A DNA stretch of 64,000 nucleotides from Parcubacteria group bacterium (GCA_012798235.1 JAAZNP010000004.1:2171-66170); one strand, 5' to 3'. Numbered from the stretch's first letter, positions 5,560 through 38,738 are shown. Notes: a model not told the origin generated them from the letters alone. Translations and numbers: made by a program.

Positions 5560-5688
5560 CCCCCTCACTTGGAAAAGATTTGCTATCGCAAAATTAGCTA
5601 TAGAGAAACCATTATATTAGAAGATAAAATTTTCTTTTAAAACTCATTTGATTTTATGAAATAAAATTTATCTTTTCCAAGTGAGGGG
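5560..5688. repeat. TIR-repeat element copy A (~129 bp; perfect 19-bp terminal inverted repeats CCCCTCACTTGGAAAAGAT / ATCTTTTCCAAGTGAGGGG). It is inverted relative to copies B and C.
   Basis: The arms at 5561-5579 and 5670-5688 are exact reverse complements. The internal AT-rich ~90 nt is homologous (as its reverse complement) to copies at 14116-14250 and 38603-38738, including the GCGATAGC/GCTATCGC mini-hairpin motif. Confidence 0.8.
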
Positions 5689-5768
5689 TCAAATTGTGGT
5701 ATTATTTATAGAGAAGATTCGAATATGATAATTATATCATAATAACATTATTTTGTCAATGAAGGATA

Positions 5769-6146
5769 ATGAATCATTTAAGATTAGGTAGTTGGGGAGA
5801 AGAAATCGGCATTAAGTATCTTCAAGCTCATAACTACCAAATTATTTCTCGAAATTATCGAAAAAAGTGGGGCGAAATTGATATTGTTGCCTTTGATGGA
5901 CAAAGTAAAGAAACAGTTTTCTTAGAAGTAAAAACAATAAATAGATTAAACACAGCAAGTTTATTACCAGAAGAAGAATTAACACCAGAAAAGATGCTAA
6001 AACTCAAAAGAGTAATCTTAAGTTTTTTAAGCCAGTATCATTTGGAAGATAAACCGTGGCGTTTTGATTTTCTAGCCATAGAAATACAAAATAATGCTTT
6101 AGAACCAGATCTCCGCCATTATAAGGATGTTTATTTAGAATTTTAA
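5769..6146 (+). CDS. yraN: UPF0102/YraN family endonuclease-like protein
   Basis: 125 aa. The sequence GEEIGIKYLQAHNYQIISRNYRKKWGEIDIVAFDG...FLEVKT is typical of the YraN family. Confidence 0.8.
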   Translation: MNHLRLGSWGEEIGIKYLQAHNYQIISRNYRKKWGEIDIVAFDGQSKETVFLEVKTINRLNTASLLPEEELTPEKMLKLKRVILSFLSQYHLEDKPWRFDFLAIEIQNNALEPDLRHYKDVYLEF

Positions 6147-6154
6147 GTGATTTG

Positions 6155-6320
6155 TTTCACACCAAACATTGTGTGAAACAAAGTGTGAAACATTTTTATA
6201 GAATTGCACTAAAAAATCGCTTAACCATGCGAAAACCAGGCTTTCAAAGCTTAGTTTGCTCATGGTTAAGCGAAAAAATGACTTTTTTCTCTTGTAAAAT
6301 GTTTCACGTGAAACATTTTA
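6155..6320. promoter_or_regulatory. Convergent-gene intergenic region with three hairpins. Two of them share a TGTTTCAC/GTGAAACA core, one being the perfect 24-bp palindrome aaaatgtttcacGTGAAACATTTT. They probably act as bidirectional terminators, possibly with an added protein-binding site.
   Basis: The first hairpin is tttgtttcacac..gtgtgaaacaaa. The second is a 12-bp stem, cgcttaaccatg...catggttaagcg. The third is aaaatgtttcacgtgaaacatttt. The listed ORF 6152..6334 is rejected as coding. Confidence 0.5.
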
Positions 6321-7439
6321 AGTTAAAATTCTAGGAAGCCAAGGGTTAATTCGAGTGACGATTTCGTAATTTATAGTGTTAGCCCAAGAAGCTAAATCAT
6401 TAGCACTGATTATTTGATTTTTGCTTTTACCGATTAAAATTACTTTATCACCAACTTTAGCATTAGGTACTTTAGTAATATCCACCATTGATAAATTCAT
6501 ACAGATTCTACCTCGAATCGGGCATTTTTTGCCCTTGATAATTACCTGAGCTCGATTAGAAAAGAGTCGATCATAACCATCCCAATAACCAACCGGAATA
6601 ATTGCTAAATTAGTTTTCTTTTTAGTAGTATATGTACCGCCATAACCAATTTTTGTTTTTGGCGGCAAATCTTTTATTTGAAGAATTGTCGTATACCAAA
6701 ATAGAGCTGGTTTTAAATTAATTCTTTGGGCAATTTTTTCATTATCATATAAACCATACAGACCAATTCCTAATCTGATGCCATTTAGAAGGGACTCTTT
6801 ATAAAGAACACTGCTAGCAGTGCAAGCAAAATGCTTTAAGGGGATATGAATTTTCTGACTTTCAAGTTGTTTTATCAGGTTTTTAAATTTTTTTAATTGA
6901 TAATAGGTATATTGGGGATTATCCTCACTAGAAGCAAAATGGCTCCAAATACCTTCTAAAATAAGATTTTGATAAGGTTTTAATTTTTCAATAAACGATA
7001 GGGTATCTTGGGGCATAATTCCGGTTCGAGAAGCGCCAGTGTCAATTTCTAAATGTATCTTGACAGTTTTATTTAAATGTTTCGCAATATCATTAAGAAT
7101 TTGTGCTTGTTGAAGATCGTAAAGAGCAAAAATAACTTTATTTTTGATAGCTTTTTTTAATAAGTTCCTATCTAATTCGTAAAAACTTAAGACAAAAATT
7201 GGTTTTTTAATTTTAAAATCAATAAGTTTTAAAGCTTCTTCTAAGCTCACGACGCAAATACGATCAACGTCCTTGTTTTTGTCACAAATTTGAGCCACTT
7301 CGAAAAAACCATGGCCATAGGCATTAGATTTAATTACCGACATAAGCAATTTATCAGGACCAATTAATTTCCGAAATTGGCTGATATTGTAATTAATGGC
7401 TGACTTATTAATTTCTAACCAAGTTAATGGTTTGTTCAT
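6318..7439 (-). CDS. alr: Alanine racemase
   Basis: The PLP-binding motif VIKSNAYGHG is present near the N-terminus. 373 aa, with the typical two-domain length. Confidence 0.9.
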   Translation of the reverse strand: MNKPLTWLEINKSAINYNISQFRKLIGPDKLLMSVIKSNAYGHGFFEVAQICDKNKDVDRICVVSLEEALKLIDFKIKKPIFVLSFYELDRNLLKKAIKNKVIFALYDLQQAQILNDIAKHLNKTVKIHLEIDTGASRTGIMPQDTLSFIEKLKPYQNLILEGIWSHFASSEDNPQYTYYQLKKFKNLIKQLESQKIHIPLKHFACTASSVLYKESLLNGIRLGIGLYGLYDNEKIAQRINLKPALFWYTTILQIKDLPPKTKIGYGGTYTTKKKTNLAIIPVGYWDGYDRLFSNRAQVIIKGKKCPIRGRICMNLSMVDITKVPNAKVGDKVILIGKSKNQIISANDLASWANTINYEIVTRINPWLPRILT

Positions 7440-7466
7440 AGATTAAATTTATAAATATAAAGGGAG

Positions 7467-7537
7467 TGGACTCAGCGAGAATCGAACTCGCATCTCCGCA
7501 ATGCGAATGCGGTGTATTACCATTATACTATGAGCCC
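7467..7537 (-). tRNA. tRNA-Ala (anticodon CGC), no encoded CCA
   Basis: Hand-folded cloverleaf. The acceptor is GGGCTCA/TGAGTCC with G3:U70. The anticodon loop is TTCGCAT and the T-loop is TTCGATT. Confidence 0.7.
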
Positions 7538-7583
7538 ATGTTTTATAAGAAGTATAATTGATTTTATTCTTTTCTTCAATCTC

Positions 7584-7611
7584 TTGACTTTTATTTTTAT
7601 AAGAGTATAAT
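7584..7611 (+). promoter_or_regulatory. Sigma70-like promoter for the arsR redox operon (TTGACT -35 at 7584-7589; TATAAT -10 at 7606-7611)
   Basis: ttgact-N16-tataat. It lies ~35 nt upstream of the arsR start at 7646. Confidence 0.65.
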
Positions 7612-7614
7612 CTA

Positions 7615-7638
7615 ATATATCAATGTAAATTGATATAT
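7615..7638. promoter_or_regulatory. Perfect 24-bp palindrome ATATATCAATgtaaATTGATATAT, candidate ArsR/SmtB operator
   Basis: 10-4-10 inverted repeat immediately downstream of the -10 and 8 nt before the arsR ATG. ArsR-family repressors classically bind 12-2-12-type imperfect inverted repeats overlapping their own promoters. Confidence 0.6.
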
Positions 7639-7645
7639 TATTTCA

Positions 7646-7942
7646 ATGAAAAAACACAAAAACTTACTATCTTTAAATGAACATCAACTTTTAGATTTTT
7701 TGAAAATCATTAGCGATGAGGAGCGTTTTAAAATTATTCATTTGCTTCGTCAAAAATCTTATTGCGTTTGCGAACTAAGCCAGTTATTAGATTTACCTCA
7801 GAATTTAATTTCTTATCATTTAAAAGTTTTAAAAGATTTTGGAATAATAAATTTAAAGAAAAATGGTCGCAAGAATTTCTATTCCATAAATATTAAAATT
7901 CTTTCTTCTCTTTGCCACATTTTAAACAAAAATTTAACCTAA
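7646..7942 (+). CDS. ArsR/SmtB family metalloregulatory transcriptional repressor
   Basis: Winged HTH, LRQKSYCVCELSQLLDLPQNLISYHLKVLKDFGII, with the CVC metal/redox-sensing motif in helix 3. Confidence 0.85.
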   Translation: MKKHKNLLSLNEHQLLDFLKIISDEERFKIIHLLRQKSYCVCELSQLLDLPQNLISYHLKVLKDFGIINLKKNGRKNFYSINIKILSSLCHILNKNLT

Positions 7943-7950
7943 TTAAAACT

Positions 7951-8205
7951 ATGACGATCAAAATTTTGGGTTCTGGTTGCCCTAACTGCCAGTTATTAGA
8001 GGCACAAACTAAAAAAGCCGTGGAGGAATTAGGATTAAAAGATATTCCAATCGAGCATGTTTATGATATTGATAAAATCATTGAAATGGGTATTGCTTTT
8101 ACTCCAGCTTTAGTAATTAATGATGAAATAAAACTCATGGGTAAGATTCCTTCCGTAGAAGAGTTAAAAGCATTAATTCAAGAATCATTAAAAAATAACA
8201 AATAA
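7951..8205 (+). CDS. Thioredoxin-fold redox-active disulfide protein (small Trx-like, CPNC)
   Basis: MTIKILGSGCPNCQ... ~85 aa. The family is commonly found next to ArsR and COG0701 permeases. The start is assigned to the internal ATG at 7951 rather than the listed 7912. Confidence 0.75.
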   Translation: MTIKILGSGCPNCQLLEAQTKKAVEELGLKDIPIEHVYDIDKIIEMGIAFTPALVINDEIKLMGKIPSVEELKALIQESLKNNK

Positions 8206-8217
8206 AAACTGAAAAAT

Positions 8218-9261
8218 ATGAGAAGATTAACCTTCGGTATTATTTTAATTGTATTAATTTTAGGAATTTTAGTGAGTTATGAGTGGTATGGCGCTTTTAA
8301 AAAATCCCATTTAATTGAGATGGGCATTTATTCTAAAGAACCGTTTCCTATCACCTCAGGCACTCCTTGGTATTTAATTCCCTTTTATACTTTATTATCT
8401 TATTTACAAAAAGCCTGGTTTTGTTTAGGTATGGCTTTTTTAATTGCTGGCGCCGTACAAACTTTTATTCCCAAAGAATTAATCATTAAACATTTAGGCA
8501 AAAGAAGCGCTAAAGCTTATTTAATGGCTGCTTTCGGCGGACCCTTACTTTCAGTTTGCTCTTGCTCGATTATTCCTTTATTTGCTGCCATTAAAAAAAG
8601 AGGCGCTGGTTTAGGACCAGCTATTACTTTTCTTTTAGCCACCCCAGCGATTAATCCAGCAGCGATTATTTTAACTTTTAGTCTATTAAACTGGAAATTT
8701 GTGGCAGGAAGAATTATTCTAGCTTTATCAGCTGCAATTATTACTGGTTTAATTTTAGAAAAAATTTGGGGCCAAGAAGACAATGCCCAATTATCTTCTT
8801 TGAATGTTGAATACCAACATATTCCTTTGAATTTAAAGAAAGATCTAATAGATTGGCTTAAAAATGTTTGGGATTTTATTAAAAAAATTCTTCCTTTAGT
8901 TCTTTTGGGTATTTTTATTATTGGAATAATAAAGATCTTTTTGACCACTGAAGTTATTGGCAAATATTTAGGACCAGGATTATGGCAAACTGCTTTAGCT
9001 TCTATTTTAGGGGTAGTGATGTATACCCCAACCTTAGTAGAGATTCCTTTTATTAGAGAACTATTAGGTTTAGGCATGGGCACTGGTCCAGCTTTAGCCT
9101 TTCTTCTAACTGGTCCAGCTTTAAGCTTGCCTTCCATGCTTGGCATTTCTAAAGTTATTGGCTGGAAAAAGGTTTTAAATTATGCTTTGATGATGTGGAT
9201 TTTAGGTATTATTGGTGGTTTGATTTTTAATTATTTTGTTCCTGTGATACACTTATTATAA
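8218..9261 (+). CDS. COG0701/ArsP-like permease (two-Cys CSCS motif)
   Basis: 347 aa polytopic membrane protein carrying the SVCSCSIIPL motif characteristic of the YraQ/ArsP permease family. Confidence 0.75.
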   Translation: MRRLTFGIILIVLILGILVSYEWYGAFKKSHLIEMGIYSKEPFPITSGTPWYLIPFYTLLSYLQKAWFCLGMAFLIAGAVQTFIPKELIIKHLGKRSAKAYLMAAFGGPLLSVCSCSIIPLFAAIKKRGAGLGPAITFLLATPAINPAAIILTFSLLNWKFVAGRIILALSAAIITGLILEKIWGQEDNAQLSSLNVEYQHIPLNLKKDLIDWLKNVWDFIKKILPLVLLGIFIIGIIKIFLTTEVIGKYLGPGLWQTALASILGVVMYTPTLVEIPFIRELLGLGMGTGPALAFLLTGPALSLPSMLGISKVIGWKKVLNYALMMWILGIIGGLIFNYFVPVIHLL

Positions 9262-9265
9262 ATAC

Positions 9266-9517
9266 ATGAATAATAATTTAATTAAAATTTATTCTTCGCC
9301 AGATTGTCCTTATTGCTATACCGTAAAAGATTATCTTAATCAAAAAGGGATTAATTTTGAAGAAATTGATTTATATGAAGAGCCAGAGAAAAGAAAAGAA
9401 ATGGAAGAAATTTCTCATCAAAAGAACATTCCAGTTTTAGTCATTAATAATGAAGTAGTTGTGGGTTGGAATAAAGAAAAAATTGATGAACTTTTAAAGA
9501 AATATGGATTTATATGA
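9266..9517 (+). CDS. Glutaredoxin/NrdH-like protein (CPYC)
   Basis: The sequence YSSPDCPYCYTVKDYL is present. 83 aa. Confidence 0.8.
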   Translation: MNNNLIKIYSSPDCPYCYTVKDYLNQKGINFEEIDLYEEPEKRKEMEEISHQKNIPVLVINNEVVVGWNKEKIDELLKKYGFI

Positions 9518-10424
9518 TCTAATTATTATTGGCGCTGGACCAGCAGGAATTACTGCTGGTATTTATGCTGCGCGCAAAAAGATTAAAACTCTTTTAATTA
9601 CCAAAGATTTTACTGGCCAAGTTGGTTTATCTTGGAAAATAGAAAATTATCCTGGTTTTAAACAAATTAGTGGTCTAAAGTTAATGGAAAATTTGAAAAA
9701 TCATTTAAAAGAATACGAAATTGAAATCAAAAATTTTGAAGAAGTAAAACAAATTGTAAAAGATAATAATTACTTTCAAACTATTACTAATGAAAATAAA
9801 TATTTAGCAAGAACATTAATTATTGCCACTGGTGCTTTACCTAAAAAATTAGCGATAAAAAACGAAAAAAAATTTCTTGGCCACGGCTTATCTTATTGTT
9901 TAACTTGCGATGAAAAAGCTTTTGAAGGAAAAATTGTGGCAGTGATTGGCGGTGGTAATGCTGGCGCCGAAGCTGCTCTAGAATTACAAAAATTTTGTCC
10001 CAAAATTTATCTTTTAGAATATTTAGAAAATTTAACTGGTGATGAAATTTTGAAAGAAGAAGTGTTAAATAGTCCCTCGATTACAGTTATTACTAATGCT
10101 CAAGTATTAAGTTTTGAGGGTGAGAAAGAATTAGAAAAAATTATTTTTAAAGACAGAAAAACAAATAAAGAAAAAGAAATTTTAATTAATGGCTGCTTTG
10201 TTGAAATTGGAACAAAATCAAATACCGAATTTTTAGAAGGGTTAGTAGAATTAAATGAGAAAAAAGAAATCATCGTTGATCCTAAAACAATGGTAACCTC
10301 AGTAAAAGGAATTTTTGCTGCTGGCGATGTTGGTAATTTTAATCAAAAACAAATTATTCTTGCCTGTGGTCAGGGCGCTTTAGCAGCTTTATCAGCTTAT
10401 CAATATTTAAAAACATTAAAATAG
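9504..10424 (+). CDS. trxB: Thioredoxin-disulfide reductase
   Basis: The FAD motif GAGPAG, the redox-active CLTCD (CxxC) and the NADPH-binding motif GGGNAG are all present. It overlaps grx by 14 nt. Confidence 0.85.
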   Translation: MDLYDLIIIGAGPAGITAGIYAARKKIKTLLITKDFTGQVGLSWKIENYPGFKQISGLKLMENLKNHLKEYEIEIKNFEEVKQIVKDNNYFQTITNENKYLARTLIIATGALPKKLAIKNEKKFLGHGLSYCLTCDEKAFEGKIVAVIGGGNAGAEAALELQKFCPKIYLLEYLENLTGDEILKEEVLNSPSITVITNAQVLSFEGEKELEKIIFKDRKTNKEKEILINGCFVEIGTKSNTEFLEGLVELNEKKEIIVDPKTMVTSVKGIFAAGDVGNFNQKQIILACGQGALAALSAYQYLKTLK

Positions 10425-10428
10425 AAGT

Positions 10429-12024
10429 ATGATTAATAAAAACAAAATTTTGGGCTTATTTTTAGTAATTACTTTAATTCTTTCGTTTTTCTCTTTTTAT
10501 TCATCTAGTAGAGCTCAAGAAAAAGAAGTTAATTTGTATTTTTTCTGGGGTCAAGGTTGTCCTCATTGTGCTCACGAGAAGCCATTTCTTGAATCATTAA
10601 AATCAAAATATCCTCAGTTAAAAATTTATGATTTTGAAGTTTGGTATAACCAGAAAAACAGAGATTTATTAATTGAGGTAGGAAAAAAACTAAAAATAGA
10701 TATTAGTGGCGTTCCTTTAACAATTATAAATGATCAGCCGATTATCGGTTATTATGATGATACTACCACCGGCAAACAAATCGAAGATTTAATAATTAAA
10801 TGTCTAAATAGCTCTTGTAAGGATTCGGTTAGAGAAATTGTTTTTAAAAATTTAACCACCACTACTAAAAAAGAAACTCCTTCAACCACTACTACCACTA
10901 CTATCTCTCAAAAAGAAATTAAAGCCTACCTTTTTTGGGCCGAAGGTTGTCCCTTATGCTCTGCTGAAAAGACTTTTTTAAATCAACTTAAAGAAGAATA
11001 TTCGAATTTAAATATTACCTATTTGAATGTTTCTAAAAATAACAATAATGATATTTTAAAACAAACAGTTGAAGAACTGAATATTGAAAATCCCAGTTTG
11101 CCATTATTAATAATCGGAGAAAAAACAATAATTGGGTGGCGCGATCAAGATACATCCGGCAAAGCAATACGCGATGCCATTAATTGTTATTTAGAAAATG
11201 AATGTCCTGACTTAGTTGGTCAAGTTTTAACTCGCTTTAATACTTTTGGTCAATTTACCAAAGATAAACCTTTGCCAGAAAAAATCAAAATTCCTTTAAT
11301 TGGAGACATAGAAACTAAAAATCTTTCCTTGCCGGCTTTAGCAATTATTATTGGTGGACTTGATGGTTTTAATCCTTGTGCGATGTGGGTGCTGATTTTC
11401 TTAATTACCTTACTTTTGAAAATGCAAGATCGCAAAAGAATGTGGATTTTAGGCTCTACTTTTATCGCTACCTCATCTGCTGTTTATTTTCTTTTTATGA
11501 ATGCTTGGCTTAATTTAATCCTCTGTTTAGGATTTATTTTTTGGATTAGGTTAGTGGTTGGGATCGTAGCTTTAGGTAGCGGTGTTTATAATTTGAGAGA
11601 TTATTTCACTAATCAGGAAGCTGCTTGTAAAGTAACTGATGCGAAACAAAAGAAAACGACCATGGATAAAATGAAAGATATTGTCCATCGCCGATCTTTC
11701 TTATTAGCTTTAATTGGTATTATTCTTTTAGCTGCTTCTATAAATTTAATCGAATTAATTTGTTCTGCTGGTTTTCCGGTGATTTTCACCCAATTATTGG
11801 CCTTGAGTAATTTAGCTAAATGGCAATATTATCTTTATATGCTTTTATACATTTTTGTCTTTATGCTTGATGATTTGATTGTTTTTATTGGCGCGATGAT
11901 TACTTTAAGAGTTACGGGTATTACTAATAAATATTCTCGCTTGTCTCATTTAATTGGTGGCATTTTGATGCTTTTAATTGGTTTGCTTTTGATCTTTAAG
12001 CCAGAATTATTGATGTTTGGCTAA
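10429..12024 (+). CDS. DsbD/CcdA-like thiol:disulfide interchange membrane protein with two N-terminal extracytoplasmic thioredoxin-like domains (CPHC, CPLC)
   Basis: A signal/TM segment is followed by two Trx-like modules separated by a Thr-rich linker. Downstream is a CcdA-like TM domain (GGLDGFNPCAMWVL). Confidence 0.75.
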   Translation: MINKNKILGLFLVITLILSFFSFYSSSRAQEKEVNLYFFWGQGCPHCAHEKPFLESLKSKYPQLKIYDFEVWYNQKNRDLLIEVGKKLKIDISGVPLTIINDQPIIGYYDDTTTGKQIEDLIIKCLNSSCKDSVREIVFKNLTTTTKKETPSTTTTTTISQKEIKAYLFWAEGCPLCSAEKTFLNQLKEEYSNLNITYLNVSKNNNNDILKQTVEELNIENPSLPLLIIGEKTIIGWRDQDTSGKAIRDAINCYLENECPDLVGQVLTRFNTFGQFTKDKPLPEKIKIPLIGDIETKNLSLPALAIIIGGLDGFNPCAMWVLIFLITLLLKMQDRKRMWILGSTFIATSSAVYFLFMNAWLNLILCLGFIFWIRLVVGIVALGSGVYNLRDYFTNQEAACKVTDAKQKKTTMDKMKDIVHRRSFLLALIGIILLAASINLIELICSAGFPVIFTQLLALSNLAKWQYYLYMLLYIFVFMLDDLIVFIGAMITLRVTGITNKYSRLSHLIGGILMLLIGLLLIFKPELLMFG

Positions 12025-12046
12025 GTCCCACTAATTGTTTTTTAAT

Positions 12047-12077
12047 TTAAAACCGCGGTAAAAAACCGCAGTTTTAA
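12047..12077 (+). terminator. Rho-independent terminator hairpin after the DsbD-like gene
   Basis: aaaaccgcggtaaaaaaccgcagtttt stem-loop with a trailing T-run. Confidence 0.55.
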
Positions 12078-12171
12078 ATTAAAAAACTTGAAAATAAAAA
12101 TAAGAGGAGTATTATGAATATATATTCATAAAGGTCGGAAAGATTAAAATAAATAATTTAAAATTACTACT

Positions 12172-12387
12172 ATGCCAAGATTTGATGGAACCGGCCCTAT
12201 GGGTTTAGGGCCAAGAACTGGTCGTGGCTTAGGTCCTTGTGGAAGAGGTTATGGTTATCGTCGCTTTGCTTCTCCTAAAAATGAAGCTGCTGCTTTAGAA
12301 GATGAGATTCACACATTAGAAGAAGAATTAAAAGCTTTAAAAGAAGAGAAAGCAGCTTTAGACAAGGAACTAAAGGACCAAAAATAA
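12172..12387 (+). CDS. Small DUF5320-like protein (Gly/Pro-rich N-terminus with a single Cys, followed by a coiled coil)
   Basis: MPRFDGTGPMGLGPRTGRGLGPCGRGYG... followed by a heptad-rich EELKALKEEK tail. A 5-codon uORF (MNIYS) preceded by an AAGAGGAG RBS lies upstream at ~12104-12121. Confidence 0.6.
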   Translation: MPRFDGTGPMGLGPRTGRGLGPCGRGYGYRRFASPKNEAAALEDEIHTLEEELKALKEEKAALDKELKDQK

Positions 12388-12394
12388 AAATTAA

Positions 12395-12424
12395 AAGATC
12401 TCTTTTCAACAAAGAGGTCTTTTA
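12395..12424 (+). terminator. Rho-independent terminator
   Basis: aaaagatctctttTCAACaaagaggtctttt hairpin plus T-run. Confidence 0.55.
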
Positions 12425-12453
12425 ATATAATAATAAATTAATACATACAATAT

Positions 12454-12741
12454 ATGCCGAGACCAAGAATGCATCGTAGGATAAGGTGTCGCCTAAATGC
12501 TTTTTATTTTAAACCTCAGGGAATACCAATGAGGTATTTAGATGTGATAGAATTAACCCTAGAAGAAGCCGAGGCTTTAAGATTAAAAAATCTTTTAGAT
12601 TTAGAGCAGAAAGAAGCCGCTAAAAAAATGAAAGTCTCGCAACCTACCTTTTAAAGGGATTTAACTTCGGCTTATAAAAAAATAGCAGAGGCTTTAATTA
12701 CTGGTAAGGCTATTAAAATTGTTTGCGATGATAATAAATAA
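12454..12741 (+). CDS. DUF134 (UPF0251) DNA-binding protein, interrupted by an in-frame TAA at 12652-12654. The N-terminal 66 codons and a further 28 in-frame codons follow the family consensus.
   Basis: MPRPRMHRRIRCRLNAFYFKPQGIPMRYLDVIELTLEEAEALRLKNLLDLEQKEAAKKMKVSQPTF-TAA-RDLTSAYKKIAEALITGKAIKIV... The family consensus continues ...PTFxRILKSARKKIAxALVxGKAI across exactly this point. Confidence 0.6.
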
Positions 12742-12756
12742 TTAATCACTCAATTT

Positions 12757-13977: not shown

Positions 13978-14002
13978 AAACAAATAAAAAATTATTGAAA
14001 CA

Positions 14003-14028
14003 AAAACCCAGCCCTAAGGCTGGGTTTT
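14003..14028. terminator. Hairpin terminator (bidirectional) between gdh and tRNA-Pro
   Basis: aaaacccagccctaaggctgggtttt. Confidence 0.6.
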
Positions 14029-14036
14029 AAATTCAG

Positions 14037-14109
14037 TCGGGCTGGTGGGACTTGAACCCACGGCCTTCTGCTCCCAAAGCAGACGCGCTAGCCACTGCGC
14101 CACAGCCCG
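14037..14109 (-). tRNA. tRNA-Pro (anticodon TGG)
   Basis: Hand-folded. The acceptor is CGGGCTG/CAGCCCG, the anticodon loop TTTGGGA and the T-loop TTCAAGT. Confidence 0.7.
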
Positions 14110-14115
14110 GTGGTG

Positions 14116-14250
14116 CCCCCTCACTTGGAAAAGATAAATTTATTCTATAAATATAAATAGTTTTTTCTATTAGGGAACAATGGACAGATTATCTTATATA
14201 AATCACTTAATAGAAGTTTGGCGATAGCCAATCTTTTCCAAGTGAGGGGG
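14116..14250. repeat. TIR-repeat element copy B (135 bp), located between tRNA-Pro and tRNA-Arg. Its right end abuts the tRNA-Arg 3' end.
   Basis: The terminal 19-20 bp CCCCCTCACTTGGAAAAGAT / ATCTTTTCCAAGTGAGGGGG are perfect inverted repeats. The interior is ~75% identical to copy C. Confidence 0.8.
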
Positions 14251-14323
14251 TCCCCTCACGAGGAGTCGAACCTCGATTTCAGGCTTAGAAGGCCCGCGCT
14301 CTATCCATTGAGCTATGAGGGGA
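14251..14323 (-). tRNA. tRNA-Arg (anticodon TCT)
   Basis: The acceptor is CCCCTCA/TGAGGGG and the anticodon loop CTTCTAA. Confidence 0.7.
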
Positions 14324-14394
14324 TTTGAAAAATTATAGCAGAAAACATCTTGAAAGAAAAGATTAAATAGCATATAATAAAACTGCCTTAATTT

Positions 14395-15690: not shown

Positions 15691-15722
15691 TTTAAAATTA
15701 AAAATTAAAAATTTATTCTGAT

Positions 15723-15795
15723 GGTGGCTATGGTGTAATGGTTAGCACGGCAGTCTGTGGAACTGTCAGTGAGGGTTCGAATCCCTCTAGTCACC
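15723..15795 (+). tRNA. tRNA-His (anticodon GTG) with G-1
   Basis: The anticodon loop is CTGTGGA, and an extra 5' G pairs with the discriminator C. Confidence 0.65.
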
Positions 15796-15800
15796 CTATC

Positions 15801-20140: not shown

Positions 20141-20214
20141 GGCGTCATCGTCTAGCCTGGTTAGGACACGGGGCCTTCAATCCCGTAACATGGTTTCAAA
20201 TCCCATTGACGCCA
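20141..20214 (+). tRNA. tRNA-Glu (anticodon TTC). Position 33 reads C, which is unusual.
   Basis: The acceptor is GGCGTCA/TGACGCC and the anticodon arm CGGGG-CCTTCAA-TCCCG, aligned by eye to canonical tRNA-Glu. Confidence 0.6.
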
Positions 20215-20218
20215 CCTT

Positions 20219-20279
20219 TCGCTTGGAAAGCACTGGACTTTACCTAAAAAGATGAAATCTTGTGCTTTCCAAGTGAGGG
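20219..20279. repeat. Miniature member (~61 bp) of the TIR-repeat family, immediately 3' of tRNA-Glu
   Basis: cgCTTGGAAAGCAC...GTGCTTTCCAAGTGAGGG. It has a 12-bp perfect inverted repeat, and its terminus CTTTCCAAGTGAGGG matches the family end motif. Confidence 0.6.
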
Positions 20280-20293
20280 AACTACTATTTATT

Positions 20294-28582: not shown

Positions 28583-28586
28583 ATTT

Positions 28587-29126: not shown

Positions 29127-29150
29127 AATTAAATATATTATAGCAATTTA

Positions 29151-31613: not shown

Positions 31614-31620
31614 AAAATTA

Positions 31621-32262
31621 TTAGATGCTCGGTTTAAGAATAATTAATTTAGTTTCTTGAGGAAGTTGAGTTTTACGAATTACTAATTTGTCTAATTTTT
31701 CTGCTTTTTTACCAAAAGCTTTAAGAAACTTATCAAGGGGATCTAGTTTTAATTTTATATTATTTAAACGATAATGCATGGGGATAACAATTTTAGGCTC
31801 AATTTGATTAATAATACCGACAGCTTCCTCAGCATCGATGGTATAAATTCCTCCTACAGGAATAAGTAAGATGTCAATGTCAGATAATTTCTCTAAAGTT
31901 TCTTCTTTAAGCATTTTCTCTCCCAAATCACCTAAATGGCAAACAGTTAAATCTTCGGATTGTATTTTATAAATAGTATTAAACCCGCGATCGTGGCCAG
32001 AACGATTATCATGATAGCTAGGCAAACCATCAATAATAATTTCTTCTTTTTCAATTTCTCCCGGACCTTCTAACACAAAAGGTTCGCCTAAAATAGCACT
32101 TTTATTATTATGGTCTTCGTGTTCGTGGGTAATTAATAAAATATCTGCTTTAAAACGACTCGGTTTAATGCCGAGCATTTTTTCGGAAAAGGGATCCAGG
32201 GCAATAATTTTTCCTTTAGTTTCAATTTTAAAATAGGAGTGTCCTAGCCATTGAATAATCAT
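31621..32262 (-). CDS. UPF0173-family metallo-beta-lactamase-fold hydrolase
   Basis: [14 protein letters not shown]...THEHEDH. Confidence 0.75.
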
Positions 32263-32271
32263 ATAACTATT

Positions 32272-33072
32272 TTAACACATTTTTCTGAATAATTGGATAG
32301 CCAAAACAGTAATCAAGATATCGAAAGAAATAAGTATTCCCAAAGAAGTAATAAAGTTATTAGTAGTTAATTGACTGATAATTGTTGGTTTTAATGTTTG
32401 AGAAAGAACAACCCAGCGTAAACTATTAATGCCGTAAGTTAAAGGGTTGTACTTAGATAAATTAACCATCCATGCTGGTGAATTATTAATAGGAAAGAAA
32501 GCGCCAGAAAGAAATACCATCGGCGCGATAATTAACTGCAAGATGAAAGAGAAACTTTCTGTTCTTTTCATACGAGCTGTTAAGCAAATGCCTAAAGAAG
32601 CCATACCATAAGCAATAAGAAAGATTATCGCTAGTCCACCGAGAAATAATTTGAGAGAAAAATTAATGCCTAAATAAGGCGCAGCAAGCAAAAGAAGAAA
32701 ACCCTCAATTAGGCCAGTAGTTGCTGCGCCTAATATTTTACCCAAAGCAATATGAGAGCGAGGCACTGGCGAAACGAGAATTTCTTTTAAAAAACCAAAT
32801 TCCCGGTCCCAAACAATAGACATCGTAGAGCTAAGGGCCATGGTGGTAACACTTAAACCCAAAATGCCAGGGAAGAAAAATTCGGCAAAATCATACGGTA
32901 GGGTTACTAAAGGGAAGATAGTTTTTAATCCTGTGCCAAAGAAGATTAAAAATAATATCGGCAAAAAAATAGAAGAGAAAAATTTAATTCGATTGCGAAC
33001 ATACATGAGAATTTCTCGATACCAAAGAATAAAAATTCCTGAAAGTTTATTGAGATTTGGTTTTTTTATCAT
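32272..33072 (-). CDS. ABC-2 type transporter permease
   Basis: Six TM helices. The start is uncertain: the listed ORF extends to 33159 but overlaps the ATPase gene, so the ATG at 33072 is preferred. Confidence 0.6.
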   Translation of the reverse strand: MIKKPNLNKLSGIFILWYREILMYVRNRIKFFSSIFLPILFLIFFGTGLKTIFPLVTLPYDFAEFFFPGILGLSVTTMALSSTMSIVWDREFGFLKEILVSPVPRSHIALGKILGAATTGLIEGFLLLLAAPYLGINFSLKLFLGGLAIIFLIAYGMASLGICLTARMKRTESFSFILQLIIAPMVFLSGAFFPINNSPAWMVNLSKYNPLTYGINSLRWVVLSQTLKPTIISQLTTNNFITSLGILISFDILITVLAIQLFRKMC

Positions 33073-34087
33073 GATTATGAGAAGGATTAAATAAAGTAAA
33101 AAGACTAGATAAATCAAAAAGAGGTGATTCGGTTTCGATATGACCATTGTCATTTTCACGGATTTGTCTACCGGTTAATTCTAAAAAGACATCTTCTAAA
33201 GTTGGCCTTCTTAATTCCATAGAAATTATTTTAGCATTTAAATTTTCCACTAATACAGGTAAAAATTCATTACCTTTATCAATTTCTATTTTTAATTCTT
33301 TACCTATCTTTTTAATATTATATTGAGGAAATTTTTGATGGAATTCTTCTTCGGCTGAATCATTATCCTCGGTTTTAATAGTAATAATGTCGCCTCCAAC
33401 CATTTTTTTAAGATTTTCTGGAGTATCAGAAGCAATGATTTTTCCGTGGTCAATAATGGCCACTCGATCGCAACTTTCAGCTTCATTTAAATATTGAGTA
33501 GTTAAGAAAATAGTAATATCTTTTTTCTTACGGATATTAAAAATATAATCCCATACTTTTTTTCTGGTTTGCGGATCCAAACCAATGGTTGGCTCGTCTA
33601 AAAATAAAATTTTCGGTTGAGCAATTAAAGAACGAGCAATTTCTAATCTTCTTTTCATGCCTCCTGAAAAATCATGCACTTTGTGTTTACGCCAATCCCA
33701 TAATTCACATATTTTTAAAACTTCAATTTTCCTTTGAGTGAAATCTTTTCGTGAAATTCCATAAAGCATAGCATGAAGATAAAGATTTTCTTCGGCAGTT
33801 AAATGGTCATCCAGGGTAACATCTTGAAAAACTAAACCAATAAAGCTGCGAACTTTATCGGGATGAGCGACAACATTATAGTTGTTAATATAAACCACAC
33901 CGGAACTAGGTTGATTTAAAGTGCACAAAATATTGATCGTAGTTGTTTTACCGGCACCATTAGGGCCCAAAAAACCAAAAATTTCTCCTCGCTTTACAGT
34001 AAAGGATATGCCATCAACTGCTTTGATGGCTCCGTATTTTTTTCTTAAATTTTCTACTTGAATAATTTCTTCTATTTCTCCATTCAT
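33047..34087 (-). CDS. ABC transporter ATP-binding protein
   Basis: Walker A (GPNGAGKTTT), signature (LSGGMKRRLEIA) and Walker B (ILFLDEPT) are present. Confidence 0.85.
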   Translation of the reverse strand: MNGEIEEIIQVENLRKKYGAIKAVDGISFTVKRGEIFGFLGPNGAGKTTTINILCTLNQPSSGVVYINNYNVVAHPDKVRSFIGLVFQDVTLDDHLTAEENLYLHAMLYGISRKDFTQRKIEVLKICELWDWRKHKVHDFSGGMKRRLEIARSLIAQPKILFLDEPTIGLDPQTRKKVWDYIFNIRKKKDITIFLTTQYLNEAESCDRVAIIDHGKIIASDTPENLKKMVGGDIITIKTEDNDSAEEEFHQKFPQYNIKKIGKELKIEIDKGNEFLPVLVENLNAKIISMELRRPTLEDVFLELTGRQIRENDNGHIETESPLFDLSSLFTLFNPSHNHDKKTKSQ

Positions 34088-34098
34088 AAAATTGAAGA

Positions 34099-35088
34099 TT
34101 AACGAAATCCCATTTTGCGCTTAACTTCCAGTAATGTTTTTTGAACAATGCCCAGCGCATATCTCTCTCCATTTTCTATGATTTCTTTAATAAGTTGAGG
34201 GTGCTTTTGATAATAAGCTCTTTTTGCTTGTATTGGTTTTAAATAATTATAAATATACTGCGCCAATTCATTTTTCAGTGGTTGGTATTTAATGCCAGTA
34301 GTTAAGTATTGTTTTTCGTATTGCTCTCTTTTTAATTTACCCATAAAAAGTTCCACTAAAGTTAAGAGAGCGTTAATTCCTCCTTGTTGCGGTACTTTAT
34401 TGCCATGACCAAGATCAGTGGGGACCTTGGCTAATTTCTTTTTTATGGTATCTAAATCGTCAATTAAGCTAATATAACTATTTTCATTGGTTTTTGACAT
34501 TTTACCTTCTCCGGTTAGAGAAGGAACATAAGAGCCACTAGTTAAGAAAGCCTGAGGCTCGGGAAAAGTTTTGCCAAAATAATTATTAAACATTCGGGCT
34601 ACTTCTCGAGTTAATTCTAAATGAGGTAATTGGTCTTTTCCCACTGGTACTAATTCAGCCTTATAGATTAGAATATCAGCTGCCATGAGAATGGGGTAGT
34701 ATAAAAGACCCAAGTTAATATATTTTGGTTGTTCTAATTTTTTTTCTTTATAAGTAGGTAGTTGTTCTAAACGAGAGACAGGATAAATAGTCGATAGATA
34801 ATAAGCCAATTCTAAATGTTGCGGCAGATGCGATTGAATAATTAAGTGGGATTTTTTAGGGTCGAGGCCACAGGCTAAATAATCCAACACTAAATCAGTT
34901 ACTTCTTTAGGGTAAGTTTTAGGATTGTAGGGTGAAGTAACTCCGTGAAGATCAACAATGGCATAAATGCAATCAAGATTTTTTTCATCTTGCAATTTTA
35001 GATAGCCTTTGATGGCACCAAAATAGTTTCCTAAATGCAAATGACCAGTTGGTCTAGTGCCAGAGAAAACGCGACGTTTTTTAATCAT
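34099..35088 (-). CDS. trpS: Tryptophanyl-tRNA synthetase
   Basis: The class Ic HIGH-like motif is TGHLHLGN, with KMSKT. 329 aa. Confidence 0.8.
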   Translation of the reverse strand: MIKKRRVFSGTRPTGHLHLGNYFGAIKGYLKLQDEKNLDCIYAIVDLHGVTSPYNPKTYPKEVTDLVLDYLACGLDPKKSHLIIQSHLPQHLELAYYLSTIYPVSRLEQLPTYKEKKLEQPKYINLGLLYYPILMAADILIYKAELVPVGKDQLPHLELTREVARMFNNYFGKTFPEPQAFLTSGSYVPSLTGEGKMSKTNENSYISLIDDLDTIKKKLAKVPTDLGHGNKVPQQGGINALLTLVELFMGKLKREQYEKQYLTTGIKYQPLKNELAQYIYNYLKPIQAKRAYYQKHPQLIKEIIENGERYALGIVQKTLLEVKRKMGFR

Positions 35089-35105
35089 AATGATATTGAG
35101 TTAAG

Positions 35106-35176
35106 AGCGGGCGATGGGAATCGAACCCACGCCTTGACCTTGGAAGGGTCACATACTGCCGCTATACTACGCCCGC
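35106..35176 (-). tRNA. tRNA-Gly (anticodon TCC)
   Basis: The acceptor is GCGGGCG/CGCCCGC and the anticodon loop CTTCCAA. The D-arm is atypical. Confidence 0.6.
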
Positions 35177-35255
35177 TTTAATCTAACAAAAAAAGATCAT
35201 TTCATGATCTTTTTTCTATTTTACCTCTTTTTAGGGAAAAAAGCAAAACGATATT

Positions 35256-36977
35256 TTAAATTTCTTTTAAAGGAGTAATTCCTAAAATTTCCATGCCCTG
35301 TTTTAAGATGGTTGCTGCTGTTTTTAAGAAAACAATTTGAGCAGCGCGGCGATTAATATTTAATTCTTTCAAAACTGGTACTTCCTCATAATAATTATTA
35401 AGCAAATCAGCTAAAGATAATAAATAATTAGCTAATAAATGAGGAGCGTAATCATGCGCACTTTTTTGAACAATGTCTTTGAATTCCAATAAGTTTTGGA
35501 TGATATTTTTTTCTAACTCTTTATTCAATAATTCTATTTTTGGCTTCTGAATAATCTTAGCCCGACTAATGATCTTATTAATGCGAGCATATGTATATTG
35601 CAAATAAACACTTGAATTACCTTTGAAACTGAGCATTTGTTGCCAATCAAAGATAATATTTTGGGTGCGAAAACTTTTTAAATCATTAAATTTTAGAGCT
35701 CCCAAAGCGATAATTTGAGCTAATTGTTTTTGTTTTTTTAACGGCCACTGGGGATGTTTGTCTCGGATAATGGCTAAAGAATTTTTTAGCCCTGTATCAA
35801 TCACTTCTTTGAGGGTGATTAATTCTCCTTCCCGGGTAGAGAATTTTTTATTATGAGCATCTAAAATTAAACCGAATTTAATATGCTCTAATTGAGTTAG
35901 AGGATCGAGGTTTAATATTTGGGCAGCGCTAAACAGTTGTTTGAAATATAATGATTGCTCATTACCAACGACATAAAGAATTTTTTCTGGATGGTACTTT
36001 TTAATACGATAGATTAAATTCGCTAAATCGCGAGTAAAATATAAGGAAGCTTTATCTGTTTTTTGAATTAAAGCAGGAGGTAAATTAAATTCATCTAAAG
36101 GCAAAATTAAAGCGCCTTGACTTTCTTGAATCAATTTTTTCTTTTTTAACTCTTCGATTAAAGGTAATAAATCTGGTTCAAAATCAGATTCTCCTTTTAG
36201 AATATCAAATTTTATTCCTAATAAATTATAAATTTTTAGAAATTCTTTCAGAGACTCTTTTTTAAACCAAAGCCATAATCGTTTGTTTGTTTTGTCTCCT
36301 GCTTCTAATTTTTTAAATTCCTCTTGAGCTAATTTTTCCAATTCCGGCTTTTGCTTTAATTCTTGGTGGAATTTTTGATAAAGCTTTAAAAGATTATCGA
36401 TGGGATTTTTCTGAATTTCTTGTTGTTTACCCCACAATTTATAAGCCACAATTAACTTGCCAAATTGGGTGCCCCAATCACCTAAATAGTTCCAGCGAAT
36501 AACATGATAACCAAGGGTTTCATATAGTTTTGCTAATGTTTCTCCGATAATAGTGGAACGTAAATGGCCAATATGCATGGGCTTGGCAATATTGGGTGAA
36601 GAATATTCCACAATAATTGGTCGAGGGTGAAAAGTTTTTAAAGAAGAAACTATATTTTTTAACACTAATATTTCTTGTGGAAAAGCATTTTTTTGAAGAA
36701 AAAAATTCAGATAACCAGGAGAGGCAATTTCTATTTTCTCTACAAACTGATATTTATCTTTTGTGATTTTAGTTAATAATAGTTGGGCAATATTCATTGG
36801 CGAGTCTTTTGCTATTTTGCTCAAGATTAAAGGTAGGGTAGAACTATAATCGCCAAAATTTTTATGAGGGGAAATTGTTATTGGGATATCAAAATCTTTG
36901 GGGATTGCCCAGTGTTTCTCTTGAGTTGCTTCTTTTAAAGCATTTTTTATTAAATTTTCTAATTGTTCTTTAATCAT
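35256..36977 (-). CDS. argS: Arginyl-tRNA synthetase
   Basis: PNIAKPMHIGHLRSTIIG (HIGH) is present, with a C-terminal DALR anticodon-binding domain. Confidence 0.85.
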   Translation of the reverse strand: MIKEQLENLIKNALKEATQEKHWAIPKDFDIPITISPHKNFGDYSSTLPLILSKIAKDSPMNIAQLLLTKITKDKYQFVEKIEIASPGYLNFFLQKNAFPQEILVLKNIVSSLKTFHPRPIIVEYSSPNIAKPMHIGHLRSTIIGETLAKLYETLGYHVIRWNYLGDWGTQFGKLIVAYKLWGKQQEIQKNPIDNLLKLYQKFHQELKQKPELEKLAQEEFKKLEAGDKTNKRLWLWFKKESLKEFLKIYNLLGIKFDILKGESDFEPDLLPLIEELKKKKLIQESQGALILPLDEFNLPPALIQKTDKASLYFTRDLANLIYRIKKYHPEKILYVVGNEQSLYFKQLFSAAQILNLDPLTQLEHIKFGLILDAHNKKFSTREGELITLKEVIDTGLKNSLAIIRDKHPQWPLKKQKQLAQIIALGALKFNDLKSFRTQNIIFDWQQMLSFKGNSSVYLQYTYARINKIISRAKIIQKPKIELLNKELEKNIIQNLLEFKDIVQKSAHDYAPHLLANYLLSLADLLNNYYEEVPVLKELNINRRAAQIVFLKTAATILKQGMEILGITPLKEI

Positions 36978-36987
36978 GTAAGAAAGG

Positions 36988-37059
36988 TCGGGCCGGTGGG
37001 ATTTGAACCCACGACTTCATCGTCCCGAACGATGCGCGCTACCACTGCGCTACGGCCCG
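36988..37059 (-). tRNA. tRNA-Pro (anticodon CGG)
   Basis: The acceptor is CGGGCCG/CGGCCCG and the anticodon loop TTCGGGA. Confidence 0.65.
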
Positions 37060-37060
37060 T

Positions 37061-38587
37061 TTATACTTTGTATTTTCTTTTTATTTTATTTTCTTCATTA
37101 GCCAGTAAATTTTGATATTTAATTTTAGCTTTTTTGTCCATTTGCTGGAGTTCTTTCTCTGATAAATGGTTTAATTCCTGCGTTCTTTTCTTCAAATAAT
37201 CTTTTTTATTTTTTTGAGGGTCATCCAGAACTTCTTCTAAAAGAATATTTAAAAGAAATCCTATTTTCGGTCCTGGTTTTAATTTGGTTATTTTCATTAT
37301 ATCATTGCCATTAATTTTTAACATTTTTAATGACGGCTCCTTTCCTTCTAATTGTTTAATGATTTTTTCTACTTTGAACAAAAAATGACGCAAGCGAAAG
37401 GGTAAAGCTTTAGGGCAGCCAGAACCAATGCGATCTGCTTCTCGTAATTGAGCCAATTCTTGAATATTTTGGCTACCAACTTTCACTAACAATCTTCTAA
37501 TCGCAGCATCAGTAGTAATTTCTGGGTCATAAACAAAACCATGATAGCGCACCAAAAGAGTGATTTTGTTTATTTTTTCCGTAGGAAATTTTAAACGGGT
37601 CAAAATTTGACGCGTCATTTGGGTGCTAACAATTTCATGATTATAAAAAGTAGCATTGGTGCCTTCGCCTTCTTTAGTTTTAGGTTTACCTAAATCATGA
37701 AATAAGCTAGCTAATCTTACTTCTAAACTATAATTTTTTTGACTAGCATATTCTAAAGAACGCCACAAGTGTTCGAAAACAGTATAAAGATGATGTTTGT
37801 TTTGAGTAACGCCAATAGTTTTTTCTAATTCCGGAATAAATTGCGAAAGCAAATTTGTTTGTTGTAATAAAAGAATTCCTTGGCTTGCTCGAGGGGTTTC
37901 AATAATTTTTGTAAATTCGTCTCGAATTCTTTCTTGGGCAATAAATTTTAAAAGAGGGGCATTTTTTTGAATAGCTTTAAAAGTCTCTGTTGCGATTTGA
38001 AAATTTAATTCGCAAGCAAAACGAATGGCTCTCATTAAACGCAAAGCGTCTTCTTGAAAACGTTCTTGAGGATTACCCACTGCTCTAATAAATTTCTCTT
38101 TTAAATCCTCTTGCCCGTTAAAAGGATCAATAATTCTTGGAATTATGAATTTAGAATCATGAATTATGGAAGTATTTTTTTCTTTGACTTTTGATTCCTG
38201 ATTCCTAATTCCTACTTCCATTGCCATGGCATTGATAGTAAAATCTCGGCGCGACAAATCTTCTTCTAATGTTTGAGCAAATTTAATAGTATCCGGATGG
38301 CGTTTATCAGTATATTTTCCTTCTTGACGAAAAGTTGTAATTTCTATGGTTTTTAATGCTGATAATTTTGAATTAGTTTTCACCAAAACAGTAGCGAATT
38401 CATTTTCATAAACACTTTCAGGAAACATTTTTTGAATTTCTTCTGGCCTGGCATTTGTAGTAATATCCCAATCCTTAGGTTGTTTTTTTAATAATAAATC
38501 TCTGACGCAACCACCAACTAAATAAGCCTCAAAATTAGCTTTTTGAAGCTTATCAATAATTTCTAAAATCTCTTTGGGAATTTTCAT
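37061..38587 (-). CDS. cca: CCA-adding tRNA nucleotidyltransferase with an HD domain
   Basis: The class II NTase motif is GGCVRD. The HD motif HDLGKP lies in the C-terminal half. Confidence 0.8.
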   Translation of the reverse strand: MKIPKEILEIIDKLQKANFEAYLVGGCVRDLLLKKQPKDWDITTNARPEEIQKMFPESVYENEFATVLVKTNSKLSALKTIEITTFRQEGKYTDKRHPDTIKFAQTLEEDLSRRDFTINAMAMEVGIRNQESKVKEKNTSIIHDSKFIIPRIIDPFNGQEDLKEKFIRAVGNPQERFQEDALRLMRAIRFACELNFQIATETFKAIQKNAPLLKFIAQERIRDEFTKIIETPRASQGILLLQQTNLLSQFIPELEKTIGVTQNKHHLYTVFEHLWRSLEYASQKNYSLEVRLASLFHDLGKPKTKEGEGTNATFYNHEIVSTQMTRQILTRLKFPTEKINKITLLVRYHGFVYDPEITTDAAIRRLLVKVGSQNIQELAQLREADRIGSGCPKALPFRLRHFLFKVEKIIKQLEGKEPSLKMLKINGNDIMKITKLKPGPKIGFLLNILLEEVLDDPQKNKKDYLKKRTQELNHLSEKELQQMDKKAKIKYQNLLANEENKIKRKYKV

Positions 38588-38602
38588 TTTTGTTTTTTGT
38601 AC

Positions 38603-38738
38603 CCCCCCCTCACTTGAAAAAGATAAATTTATTTCATAAATAATAAATATTTTTTCTACTGAGGAATAATAAACAGATTACCTTATTAAATTACTCAATA
38701 GAATCTTGGCGATAGCCAATCTTTTTCAAGTGAGGGGG
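38603..38738. repeat. TIR-repeat element copy C (136 bp), abutting the tRNA-Lys 3' end. TIR variant CACTTGAAAAAGAT.
   Basis: CCCCTCACTTGAAAAAGAT ... ATCTTTTTCAAGTGAGGGGG perfect inverted repeat. The interior is homologous to copy B. Confidence 0.8.

Follow-up and report, generated by a model that had tools for sequence, protein, structure and literature searches.

Short inverted-repeat elements at tRNA gene borders in Parcubacteria and their probable mobilisation by a small GIY-YIG nuclease

Single-domain GIY-YIG nucleases of the Ssn type, about 94 amino acids (aa) long, cut single-stranded DNA (ssDNA) beside a hairpin-type repeat, NTS/SRM. Such repeats often lie on either side of the nuclease genes, a layout called identical to that of an insertion sequence (IS) by the authors, whose remarks on a present or past mobility of these repeat-ssn-repeat units go no further than speculation (Chenal et al., Nat Commun 2025, PMC11893778). 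In bacteria of the Candidate Phyla Radiation (CPR), the rRNA genes contain non-intron insertions with GIY-YIG open reading frames (ORFs), as well as ORF-less insertions of less than 200 bp, lying either at the top or at the base of stem-loops in stable-RNA genes (J Bacteriol 2024, PMC11270868). Here we analyse a 64-kb stretch of DNA (the window) with 33% G+C, from a metagenome-assembled genome (MAG) contig assigned to 'Parcubacteria group bacterium', which carries three full-length copies (A, B and C) and one mini copy of a short repeat with 19-nt terminal inverted repeats (TIRs). These repeats are a family of MITEs (miniature inverted-repeat transposable elements), non-autonomous DNA transposons of Parcubacteria/Patescibacteria. 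With a probability of roughly 0.7, judged from sequence comparison, they would be mobilised in trans by an Ssn-like single-domain GIY-YIG nuclease of ~85-87 aa.

The repeat family and its TIRs are established beyond the window and within it. The 19-mer CCCCTCACTTGGAAAAGAT matches six times in the window as three inverted pairs, against an expectation of 0.02, and none of 100 shuffled sequences gave six or more. It is exact in all four arms of copies A and B; copy C carries one G to A substitution, the same in both arms (the A-type variant), so that its arms still pair perfectly. Within the window, a profile built from 62 copies of other genomes picks up only the three full copies (E values of 8e-31, 4e-27 and 6e-19) and, of the mini copy, the right arm. 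An earlier reading of this DNA (the sequence-only reading) had recognised the three full copies with perfect 19-nt TIRs, a mini copy, the orientation of copy A opposite to that of B and C, and the folding of the copies, and this stands except for the termini of the mini copy. The single-strand folds of the four copies give z = -6.3, -7.1, -8.9 and -6.2 against shuffles, and in the full copies a stem of 19-24 bp closes a ~95-nt loop. The mini copy is present but better placed slightly differently (Table 1), with a degenerate tRNA-proximal (left) arm, CCTTTCGCTTGG; on the minus strand it reads CCCTCACTTGGAAAGCAC-AAGATTTCATCTT-..-GTGCTTTCCAAG. It had been listed as a miniature copy of the same repeat; it belongs to a separate, conserved 'mini' subfamily and is not a deletion product of the 130-nt type.

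The idea that the copies are chance palindromes or ordinary intrinsic terminators, for which it can be said only that each forms an intergenic hairpin, has a negligible probability: besides the shuffles, other genomes contain homologous copies by the hundred, the loop measures ~95 nt, no T-run follows copy B (CACCAC and a tRNA do), and copy A lies in a divergent promoter region. The short GC-rich hairpin followed by a T-run that marks an intrinsic terminator is not what these copies present.

As the earlier reading had proposed to look for, further copies are widespread in other Patescibacteria genomes. A genome scan gave paired TIRs in seven loci (Paceibacterota, Minisyncoccia and other Patescibacteria MAGs) and a single TIR in five more, while about 20 further hits were lone matches in unrelated taxa, a number that agrees with chance expectation. 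At least 120 loci with the family TIR came from a metagenome scan; a scan of viral contigs gave one match only, in coding sequence, which we attribute to chance. In total, at least 145 TIR pairs were extracted, at least 90 of them non-redundant, from about 130 loci (~0.9 Mb; loci carry L numbers here), and the fractions given below refer to 90 non-redundant copies among the matches listed. The copies fall into size classes of ~65, ~93 and 126-141 nt (the window type), a few of 149-203 nt, and 285-286 nt; no TIR pair of 287-3000 nt, that is, no IS-sized partner, occurs in the ~0.9 Mb of listed loci. No ORF fills the copies of the 126-141-nt class, which are short, non-coding and bounded by 19-nt TIRs, as expected of MITEs.

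Copies were oriented by alignment to copy B, the palindromic ATAAATTTAT being misleading as an orientation mark. Three parts are conserved: the TIR, including its outer 8 nt, CCCCTCAC; a subterminal hairpin beside one TIR; and the block ATTTATGAAATAAATTT beside the other. The centre is AT-rich and variable, at ~50% conservation. The TIR stems hold 960 Watson-Crick pairs out of 972, with compensatory changes at 5 positions, and the subterminal hairpin covaries (TGGC/GCCA, TGAC/GTCA, TGGT/ACCA, CGGC/GCCG, TTGC/GCAA), with double changes in four of its five pairs, a score reached by none of 500 shuffles. The mini-hairpin described earlier as conserved takes in copy A the form TTTGC..GCAAA, a compensatory variant of TTGGC..GCCAA.

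The borders of the copies record their insertion. Counted from the core CCCTCAC..GTGAGGG, flanking direct repeats appear in one register only, with exact 7-mers at 22 of the 90 copies against 1.3 by permutation, and 51/90 have duplications of 6-11 nt when no more than a single mismatch is allowed. Almost every one fits the form G-N5-C. A 7-nt duplication consists of 5 bp plus the C/G of the TIR, and thus comes down to 5 bp when CCCCTCAC is taken as the TIR; overall, the length ranges from 5 to 11 nt. The duplications of the window copies themselves are degenerate (about 4 of 5 positions), and those of the copy B orthologues are exact: the copy B insertion is also found in L037, L152, L111, L116 and L035, with the exact 7-nt duplication GGGCACC in L037 and L152.

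Both filled and empty states occur at orthologous loci. The tRNA-Lys(ctt) site is filled in the window (copy C) and empty in L012, where GGAGGCA is followed by CAAATAAAATG directly before the gene of the CCA-adding enzyme; tRNA-Ser(gct) is filled in L003 and L012 and empty in the window; and tRNA-Leu(taa) has the element in L003 but not in L012 or the window. At the tRNA-Glu/tsaD site of the mini copy, six loci (L036, L046, L054, L080, L110 and L152) have a 130-nt copy instead. The nusA-yraN spacer, where copy A lies, holds other family members in L108 (nested), L149 and L101, and an unoccupied ..TTGTCAAAT.. sequence in L099. Insertion also takes place within the family: the loop of the 'mini' element is empty in L081 and L107 (GGGCGAAGCCC) and filled in a dozen other loci (GGGCGAAGC, a 65-nt element, then GCGAAGCCC), and the resulting composite is itself found at many sites with its own duplication at each, so that nested and composite copies have separate duplications. 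Thus the proposal that the repeats are MITEs, for which the sequence-only reading had named flanking duplications and a comparison of filled with empty sites as tests, is borne out by duplications, by filled and empty sites, by nesting, by size classes with common termini and by the frequency of copies at tRNA ends.

Indeed, 27 of the 90 copies abut a tRNA end, while random placement gives 0.22 and never more than 3 in 2000 simulations. Of these 27, the 3' end accounts for 21 and the 5' end for 6, with 16 anticodon species altogether. At 3' ends the insertion point is at the discriminator or 1 nt beyond, and the duplication takes in the discriminator along with the final bases of the acceptor, and in many cases a C as well (GGCAC, GCCAC, CTCCG). 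At 5' ends, positions 1-10 of the tRNA are repeated upstream, insertion being at position 10/11, and the first G residues are replaced by the terminal G run of the element; because this run stands in for them, an intact tRNA remains. The 5' end of the transfer-messenger RNA (tmRNA) gene in L042 is targeted with the same pattern. Other targets are -35-like boxes (GTTGAC, GCTTGAC), the TTGAC type recurring across the family, and small GC hairpins, which are likewise recurrent. The tRNA-border preference is therefore real, and it is wider than the tRNA 3' ends to which it had first been ascribed.

A role in the processing of tRNA precursors or in regulation, for which the element would be retained as a small RNA or as a structured tRNA trailer or spacer cut by RNase III, would fit the exact abutment to tRNA 3' ends, the long perfect stem, the covarying subterminal hairpin and the old, conserved occupancy of the Arg-Pro spacer; G.T mismatches also outnumber A.C mismatches 9:2 on one strand, a weak sign and not an independent one from copy to copy. 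However, 63 of the 90 copies lie away from tRNAs, as does copy A, orthologous tRNAs function without the element, and duplications and nesting indicate insertion at the DNA level. A directional trailer RNA would have a fixed orientation relative to the tRNA, and the interiors occur in both orientations at tRNA 3' ends (13 against 5). Among known RNA families, only tRNAs match in the window at Rfam gathering scores, and a scan around copy B by E value gave nothing credible that overlaps it, only tRNAs and chance hits below threshold. We thus consider a retained functional RNA very unlikely. A role at the RNA level is not needed to explain the data and is possible as a consequence of insertion, since a long stem within a tRNA precursor could be an obvious RNase III substrate.

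Two further candidates were rejected. The TIR had been read as mimicking the acceptor strand of tRNA-Arg, but this look-alike stem is peculiar to the present genome: because the orthologous tRNA-Arg genes with the same insertion read ..CGGGGGCA (L037, L152) and 16 anticodon species are targets, mimicry is not supported. An integrase-type element at a tRNA 3' end does not match either, as these elements are 65-286 nt long, without an integrase, and duplicate only 5-11 nt.

The 285-286-nt class (element range 284-286) points to a possible source of mobility. Its eight copies, at five sites, are laid out as TIR, ORF and TIR, with an ATG straight after the left TIR (GGAAAGAAT, then ATG) and a TGA stop within the right one (CAAG TGA GGG). 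The product is an 87-aa GIY-YIG protein (Pfam PF01541, E = 6e-16) that keeps the catalytic residues, and the single-domain GIY-YIG proteins of related loci have 84-87 aa. TIR-bounded GIY-YIG elements thus exist at multiple insertion sites, with duplications. Three copies (L132, L006 and L143) have exactly the A-type TIR of copy C, and MITEs and GIY-YIG elements share contigs in L041, L047 and L111. The layout recurs in two further TIR lineages, CCCCCACACCAAACAAGCTT (at a tRNA-Ala 3' end; lineage CCCCCACACC..) and CCCCGTAGT.., each with duplications of its own. More than 1100 relatives of the protein have 83-90 aa, and those with a source name are from CPR bacteria. Homologues retrieved by protein are 56-69% identical; in the seven contexts fetched in this way, the gene always lies immediately 5' of a tRNA gene and in the same direction, and five of the seven have as their boundaries CCCCTCAC and an inner TIR specific to the lineage (..TTGAAAAGGAT, ..CTATGCCTTT, ..ATGA in two, and ..CCAGAAATGG). 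Across at least eight lineages, the inner TIR sequence shifts with the protein lineage.

Because, in the listed loci, this protein is the only coding partner within the TIRs, no pair exceeds 286 nt, and the TIRs match its lineages, we take it as the likely mobilising enzyme. Several points weigh against this. By tblastn, the 64-kb window contains no GIY-YIG gene; MITE interiors have no significant similarity to the GIY-YIG ORF; and TIRs are missing from several GIY-YIG homologues (L161, L171 and the second gene of L164). The enzymes of this family are hydrolytic nucleases not known to have strand-transfer activity, so integration would need host functions, and the 5-11-nt spread of the duplications is unlike that of a classical transposase. 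The Arg-Pro and nusA-yraN insertions are old and conserved, which fits host function too. Finally, fetching the loci by their TIR biases the counts of copy types. A derivation of the MITEs from the GIY-YIG element by internal deletion was rejected, with p >= 0.05 in 16 of 18 comparisons and two values of p <= 0.01 that fail correction for 18 tests.

Several of these points would also suit a MITE family moved by an unsampled transposase of known type, with the GIY-YIG ORF as a passenger or an independent homing-type gene inside the same ends: to our knowledge GIY-YIG nucleases do not catalyse transposition, the interiors are unrelated to the ORF, homologues without TIRs exist, and the window holds no such gene. 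We find this unlikely. The listed loci (~0.9 Mb) contain no other coding element in these TIRs and none above 286 nt, the ORF fits the TIRs exactly and is tracked by the inner TIR, and the GIY-YIG elements are themselves found at several sites with duplications.

In the reading that we favour, the ~85-87-aa nuclease from the 284-286-bp sibling elements would move the MITEs. Insertion duplicates a short target that starts with G and ends with C, usually 7 nt from the core CCCTCAC. Since the two end bases are constant while the length is anywhere between 5 and 11 nt, the joining of each strand may take place beside a C, possibly with some microhomology to the C/G-run termini. At the borders of stable-RNA genes, the duplication and the terminal G/C run restore an intact gene, and tRNA and rRNA processing enzymes (RNase P and RNase Z for tRNA) would presumably render the insertions harmless. 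It is tempting to go further and to see the window repeats as non-autonomous members of an undescribed class of transposon, whose sole gene encodes a ~85-aa GIY-YIG nuclease and which homes to tRNA/tmRNA borders, rebuilding the gene from the duplication and its G/C-run termini; for this fuller proposal the chances seem to us evenly balanced. Such a class may also account for the non-intron insertions in CPR rRNA genes.

The positions of the window copies and of the neighbouring features are collected in Table 1. Copies B and C and the mini copy begin right after a tRNA discriminator, as had been reported and as the Rfam tRNA coordinates bear out; the discriminator of tRNA-Arg(tct) that adjoins copy B is an A. 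Copy B had been said to fill the spacer between two tRNA genes, and it does so nearly, but a 6-nt remnant, CACCAC, makes up the rest of the Arg-Pro spacer. Copy C has four additional C at its distal end. Copy A lies between the divergent genes nusA and yraN and is inserted directly on the -35 box of the predicted nusA promoter. On its far side, a perfect TTGACA-17-TATAAT with a TG extension (5731-5759, minus strand) points through copy A at nusA, and so copy A may be transcribed as part of a long nusA leader.

Table 1. Repeat copies in the window and the features next to them
Feature	Position	Strand	Description
Copy A	5560-5688	+	Main-class MITE, 129 nt; TIRs 5561-5579(+)/5670-5688(-)
Copy A subterminal hairpin	~5579-5592		TTTGC-TATC-GCAAA
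Copy A flanking duplication	5555-5559 and 5688-5692		GTCAA at each; the second reads the ambiguous C/G-run border one base in
Copy B	14116-14250	-	Main-class MITE, 135 nt, in the tRNA-Arg(tct)/tRNA-Pro(tgg) spacer; TIRs 14117-14135(+)/14231-14249(-)
Copy B subterminal hairpin	14218-14231
Copy C	38602-38738	-	Main-class MITE downstream of tRNA-Lys(ctt); TIRs 38606-38624(+)/38719-38737(-)
Copy C subterminal hairpin	38706-38719
Mini copy	~20215-20280	-	'Mini' subfamily, ~65 nt, directly after tRNA-Glu(ttc)
tRNA-Arg(tct)	14251-14322	-	Rfam tRNA coordinates; copy B begins at the base next to the discriminator
tRNA-Pro(tgg)	14037-14109	-	6 nt downstream of copy B
tRNA-Lys(ctt)	38739-38811	-	Rfam tRNA coordinates; copy C begins at the base next to discriminator A
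tRNA-Glu(ttc)	20141-20214	+	Mini copy follows at once
Predicted promoter of nusA (4286-5488, -)	5532-5559	-	Sigma-70-like, TTGACT-16-TATAAT

Other sequences were seen at the kinds of site that the family occupies. In the rRNA operons of L041 (3668-9924) and L072 (1399-11566), family members are densely packed, lying to either side of the spacer tRNA-Ala, ~250 nt upstream of the 23S gene and ~60 nt after the 5S gene, and their 23S genes have large insertions of 1.2-1.5 kb. In L029 (7281-7460) and L018 (1-85), a 17-nt copy of the tRNA-Ser(gga) 3' end lies beside a MITE, with a GC-rich gap of ~175 nt to the real tRNA, which points to an additional insertion, of a different kind, at this tRNA end. 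In L171 (~2255-2300), a 24-nt perfect palindrome, CCCCTCTGCTCGCGAGCAGAGGGG, occupies position 10/11 of tRNA-Ala, where GGGCCCTTAG is duplicated as usual, and may be a minimal relic or the footprint of a TIR element. The second GIY-YIG gene of L164 (2262-2657) lies between a 22-nt copy of the tRNA-Ala 5' part (GGGGCCCTTAGCTTAGTTGGTA) and the complete tRNA-Ala; it looks like another mode of insertion, in the D-loop region of the same tRNA-Ala. In the window itself, a GC-rich, hairpin-rich stretch (45931-46075; ..TCCTTCGCTGTTCCACAGCTACGGAATAGC..CCGTAAGACGAAGGATGTCCTCC..) occupies the space between tRNA-Ser(gct) and rpsO in which L003 and L012 carry a MITE. A similar motif, GAAGGAGGAC, is also present before a GIY-YIG gene in L042 (~7320-7375), and together the two may represent another repeat family.

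The window has other features apart from the family. ARAGORN predicts a tRNA-Ile with anticodon TAT at 52129-52201, which has the best Rfam tRNA score in the window; the anticodon would imply an unusual reading of AUA and would bear on the need for TilS in this genome. Between the convergent yraN-like gene and the ORF 6318-7439 sits an inverted repeat that does not belong to the TIR family (6217-6273); its 28-nt arms are 86% complementary, with a 1-nt gap. Within the ORF 39018-41129, 12-nt tandem units (GGAACTGGCACT-like; 39520-39677) encode a Gly/Thr-rich low-complexity stretch, and two 98-nt Cys-rich repeats follow downstream (40420-40622).

Should the GIY-YIG protein move these elements, transposition would be driven by a hydrolytic nuclease of ~85 residues, from a catalytic family not known for this in prokaryotes, and a complete mobile element would be contained within 285 bp; among the autonomous DNA transposons that we know of, none would be as small as this one of ~285 bp. 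That streamlined Parcubacteria genomes carry repeats at tRNA borders matters for annotation and assembly, and the elements may also explain unexplained insertions in Parcubacteria rRNA genes. Moreover, the paired nuclease and TIR lineages could yield new sequence- or structure-specific DNA tools.

Among described elements, the Correia elements of Neisseria resemble the present family in size (~100-150 bp), in their TIRs and short duplication, in their many intergenic copies and in insertion next to promoters, but they duplicate TA, and their TIR and target are different. Known bacterial MITEs such as these are tied to DDE-type IS or have no known partner, whereas here the sole coding partner is a GIY-YIG nuclease and the duplication length is variable. 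REP/BIME-RAYT and IS200/IS605 systems likewise combine hairpin repeats with a small nuclease gene between the same repeats, and an ssDNA mechanism has been proposed (PMC11893778). However, those systems use HUH Y1 transposases, with no duplication and no long TIRs, and membership in them was rejected for the present family, which has TIRs, duplications and a GIY-YIG partner. A more distant parallel is offered by Dada, eukaryotic DNA transposons reported to insert specifically into small RNA genes of multiple copies, tRNA genes among them, which serve as safe havens (PMC3706591); being eukaryotic, kilobases long and equipped with a DDE transposase, they serve as an analogy only.

The insertions in CPR rRNA genes (PMC11270868) come from the same bacterial group and share GIY-YIG ORFs, short ORF-less forms and a location in stable-RNA genes, although no TIRs, duplications or tRNA sites are reported there; judged by their description, they may be the same elements. 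A full-text literature search found no account of GIY-YIG elements with TIRs and duplications, nor of MITEs in these bacteria, and there is no Rfam match either; against both, the earlier label 'unreported' holds up.

The closest likeness is to Ssn. In both cases a small single-domain GIY-YIG gene lies between inverted-repeat DNA that is also present as many ORF-less copies, and the CPR protein is 35% identical (E = 3e-14) to an SRM-flanked Azospirillum homologue. By its sequence, the CPR nuclease is a distant relative of the Ssn ssDNA nucleases (CDD family cd10448) and of UPF0213 (cd10456)/YazA: UPF0213 proteins are its nearest solved relatives (best PDB match BH0048, E = 7e-7), and its C-terminal third differs from Ssn. 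The Azospirillum lipoferum locus (plasmid AZO_p3; L173 479-987) is a clear case of a repeat-gene-repeat unit within an operon, with the gene and two NTS-like hairpins on each side of it placed between sufB and sufC. This homology and the shared layout (PMC11893778) could speak for a domesticated system, now immobile, in which hairpin sites are kept by the host for an ssDNA nuclease that tunes recombination or DNA uptake, as proposed for NTS/SsnA in Neisseria. Yet a regular-expression search located the SRM motif HGTCWY..RNCYNB neither at the window repeats nor in the 150 nt around any of five CPR GIY-YIG elements, whereas it recovered four NTS-like SRMs around the Azospirillum gene. The flanks here are the two arms of one long-range TIR, not local hairpins, and the lineage-specific filled and empty sites and nested copies point to repeated transposition; domestication is therefore, in our view, highly improbable. 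The duplications, nesting, ORF-less size classes and tRNA-border targeting of the present family are not described in PMC11893778, whose main text does not mention tRNA, MITE or Patescibacteria. The comparative evidence of movement presented here, which is direct, makes the idea that Ssn units are mobile a testable one.

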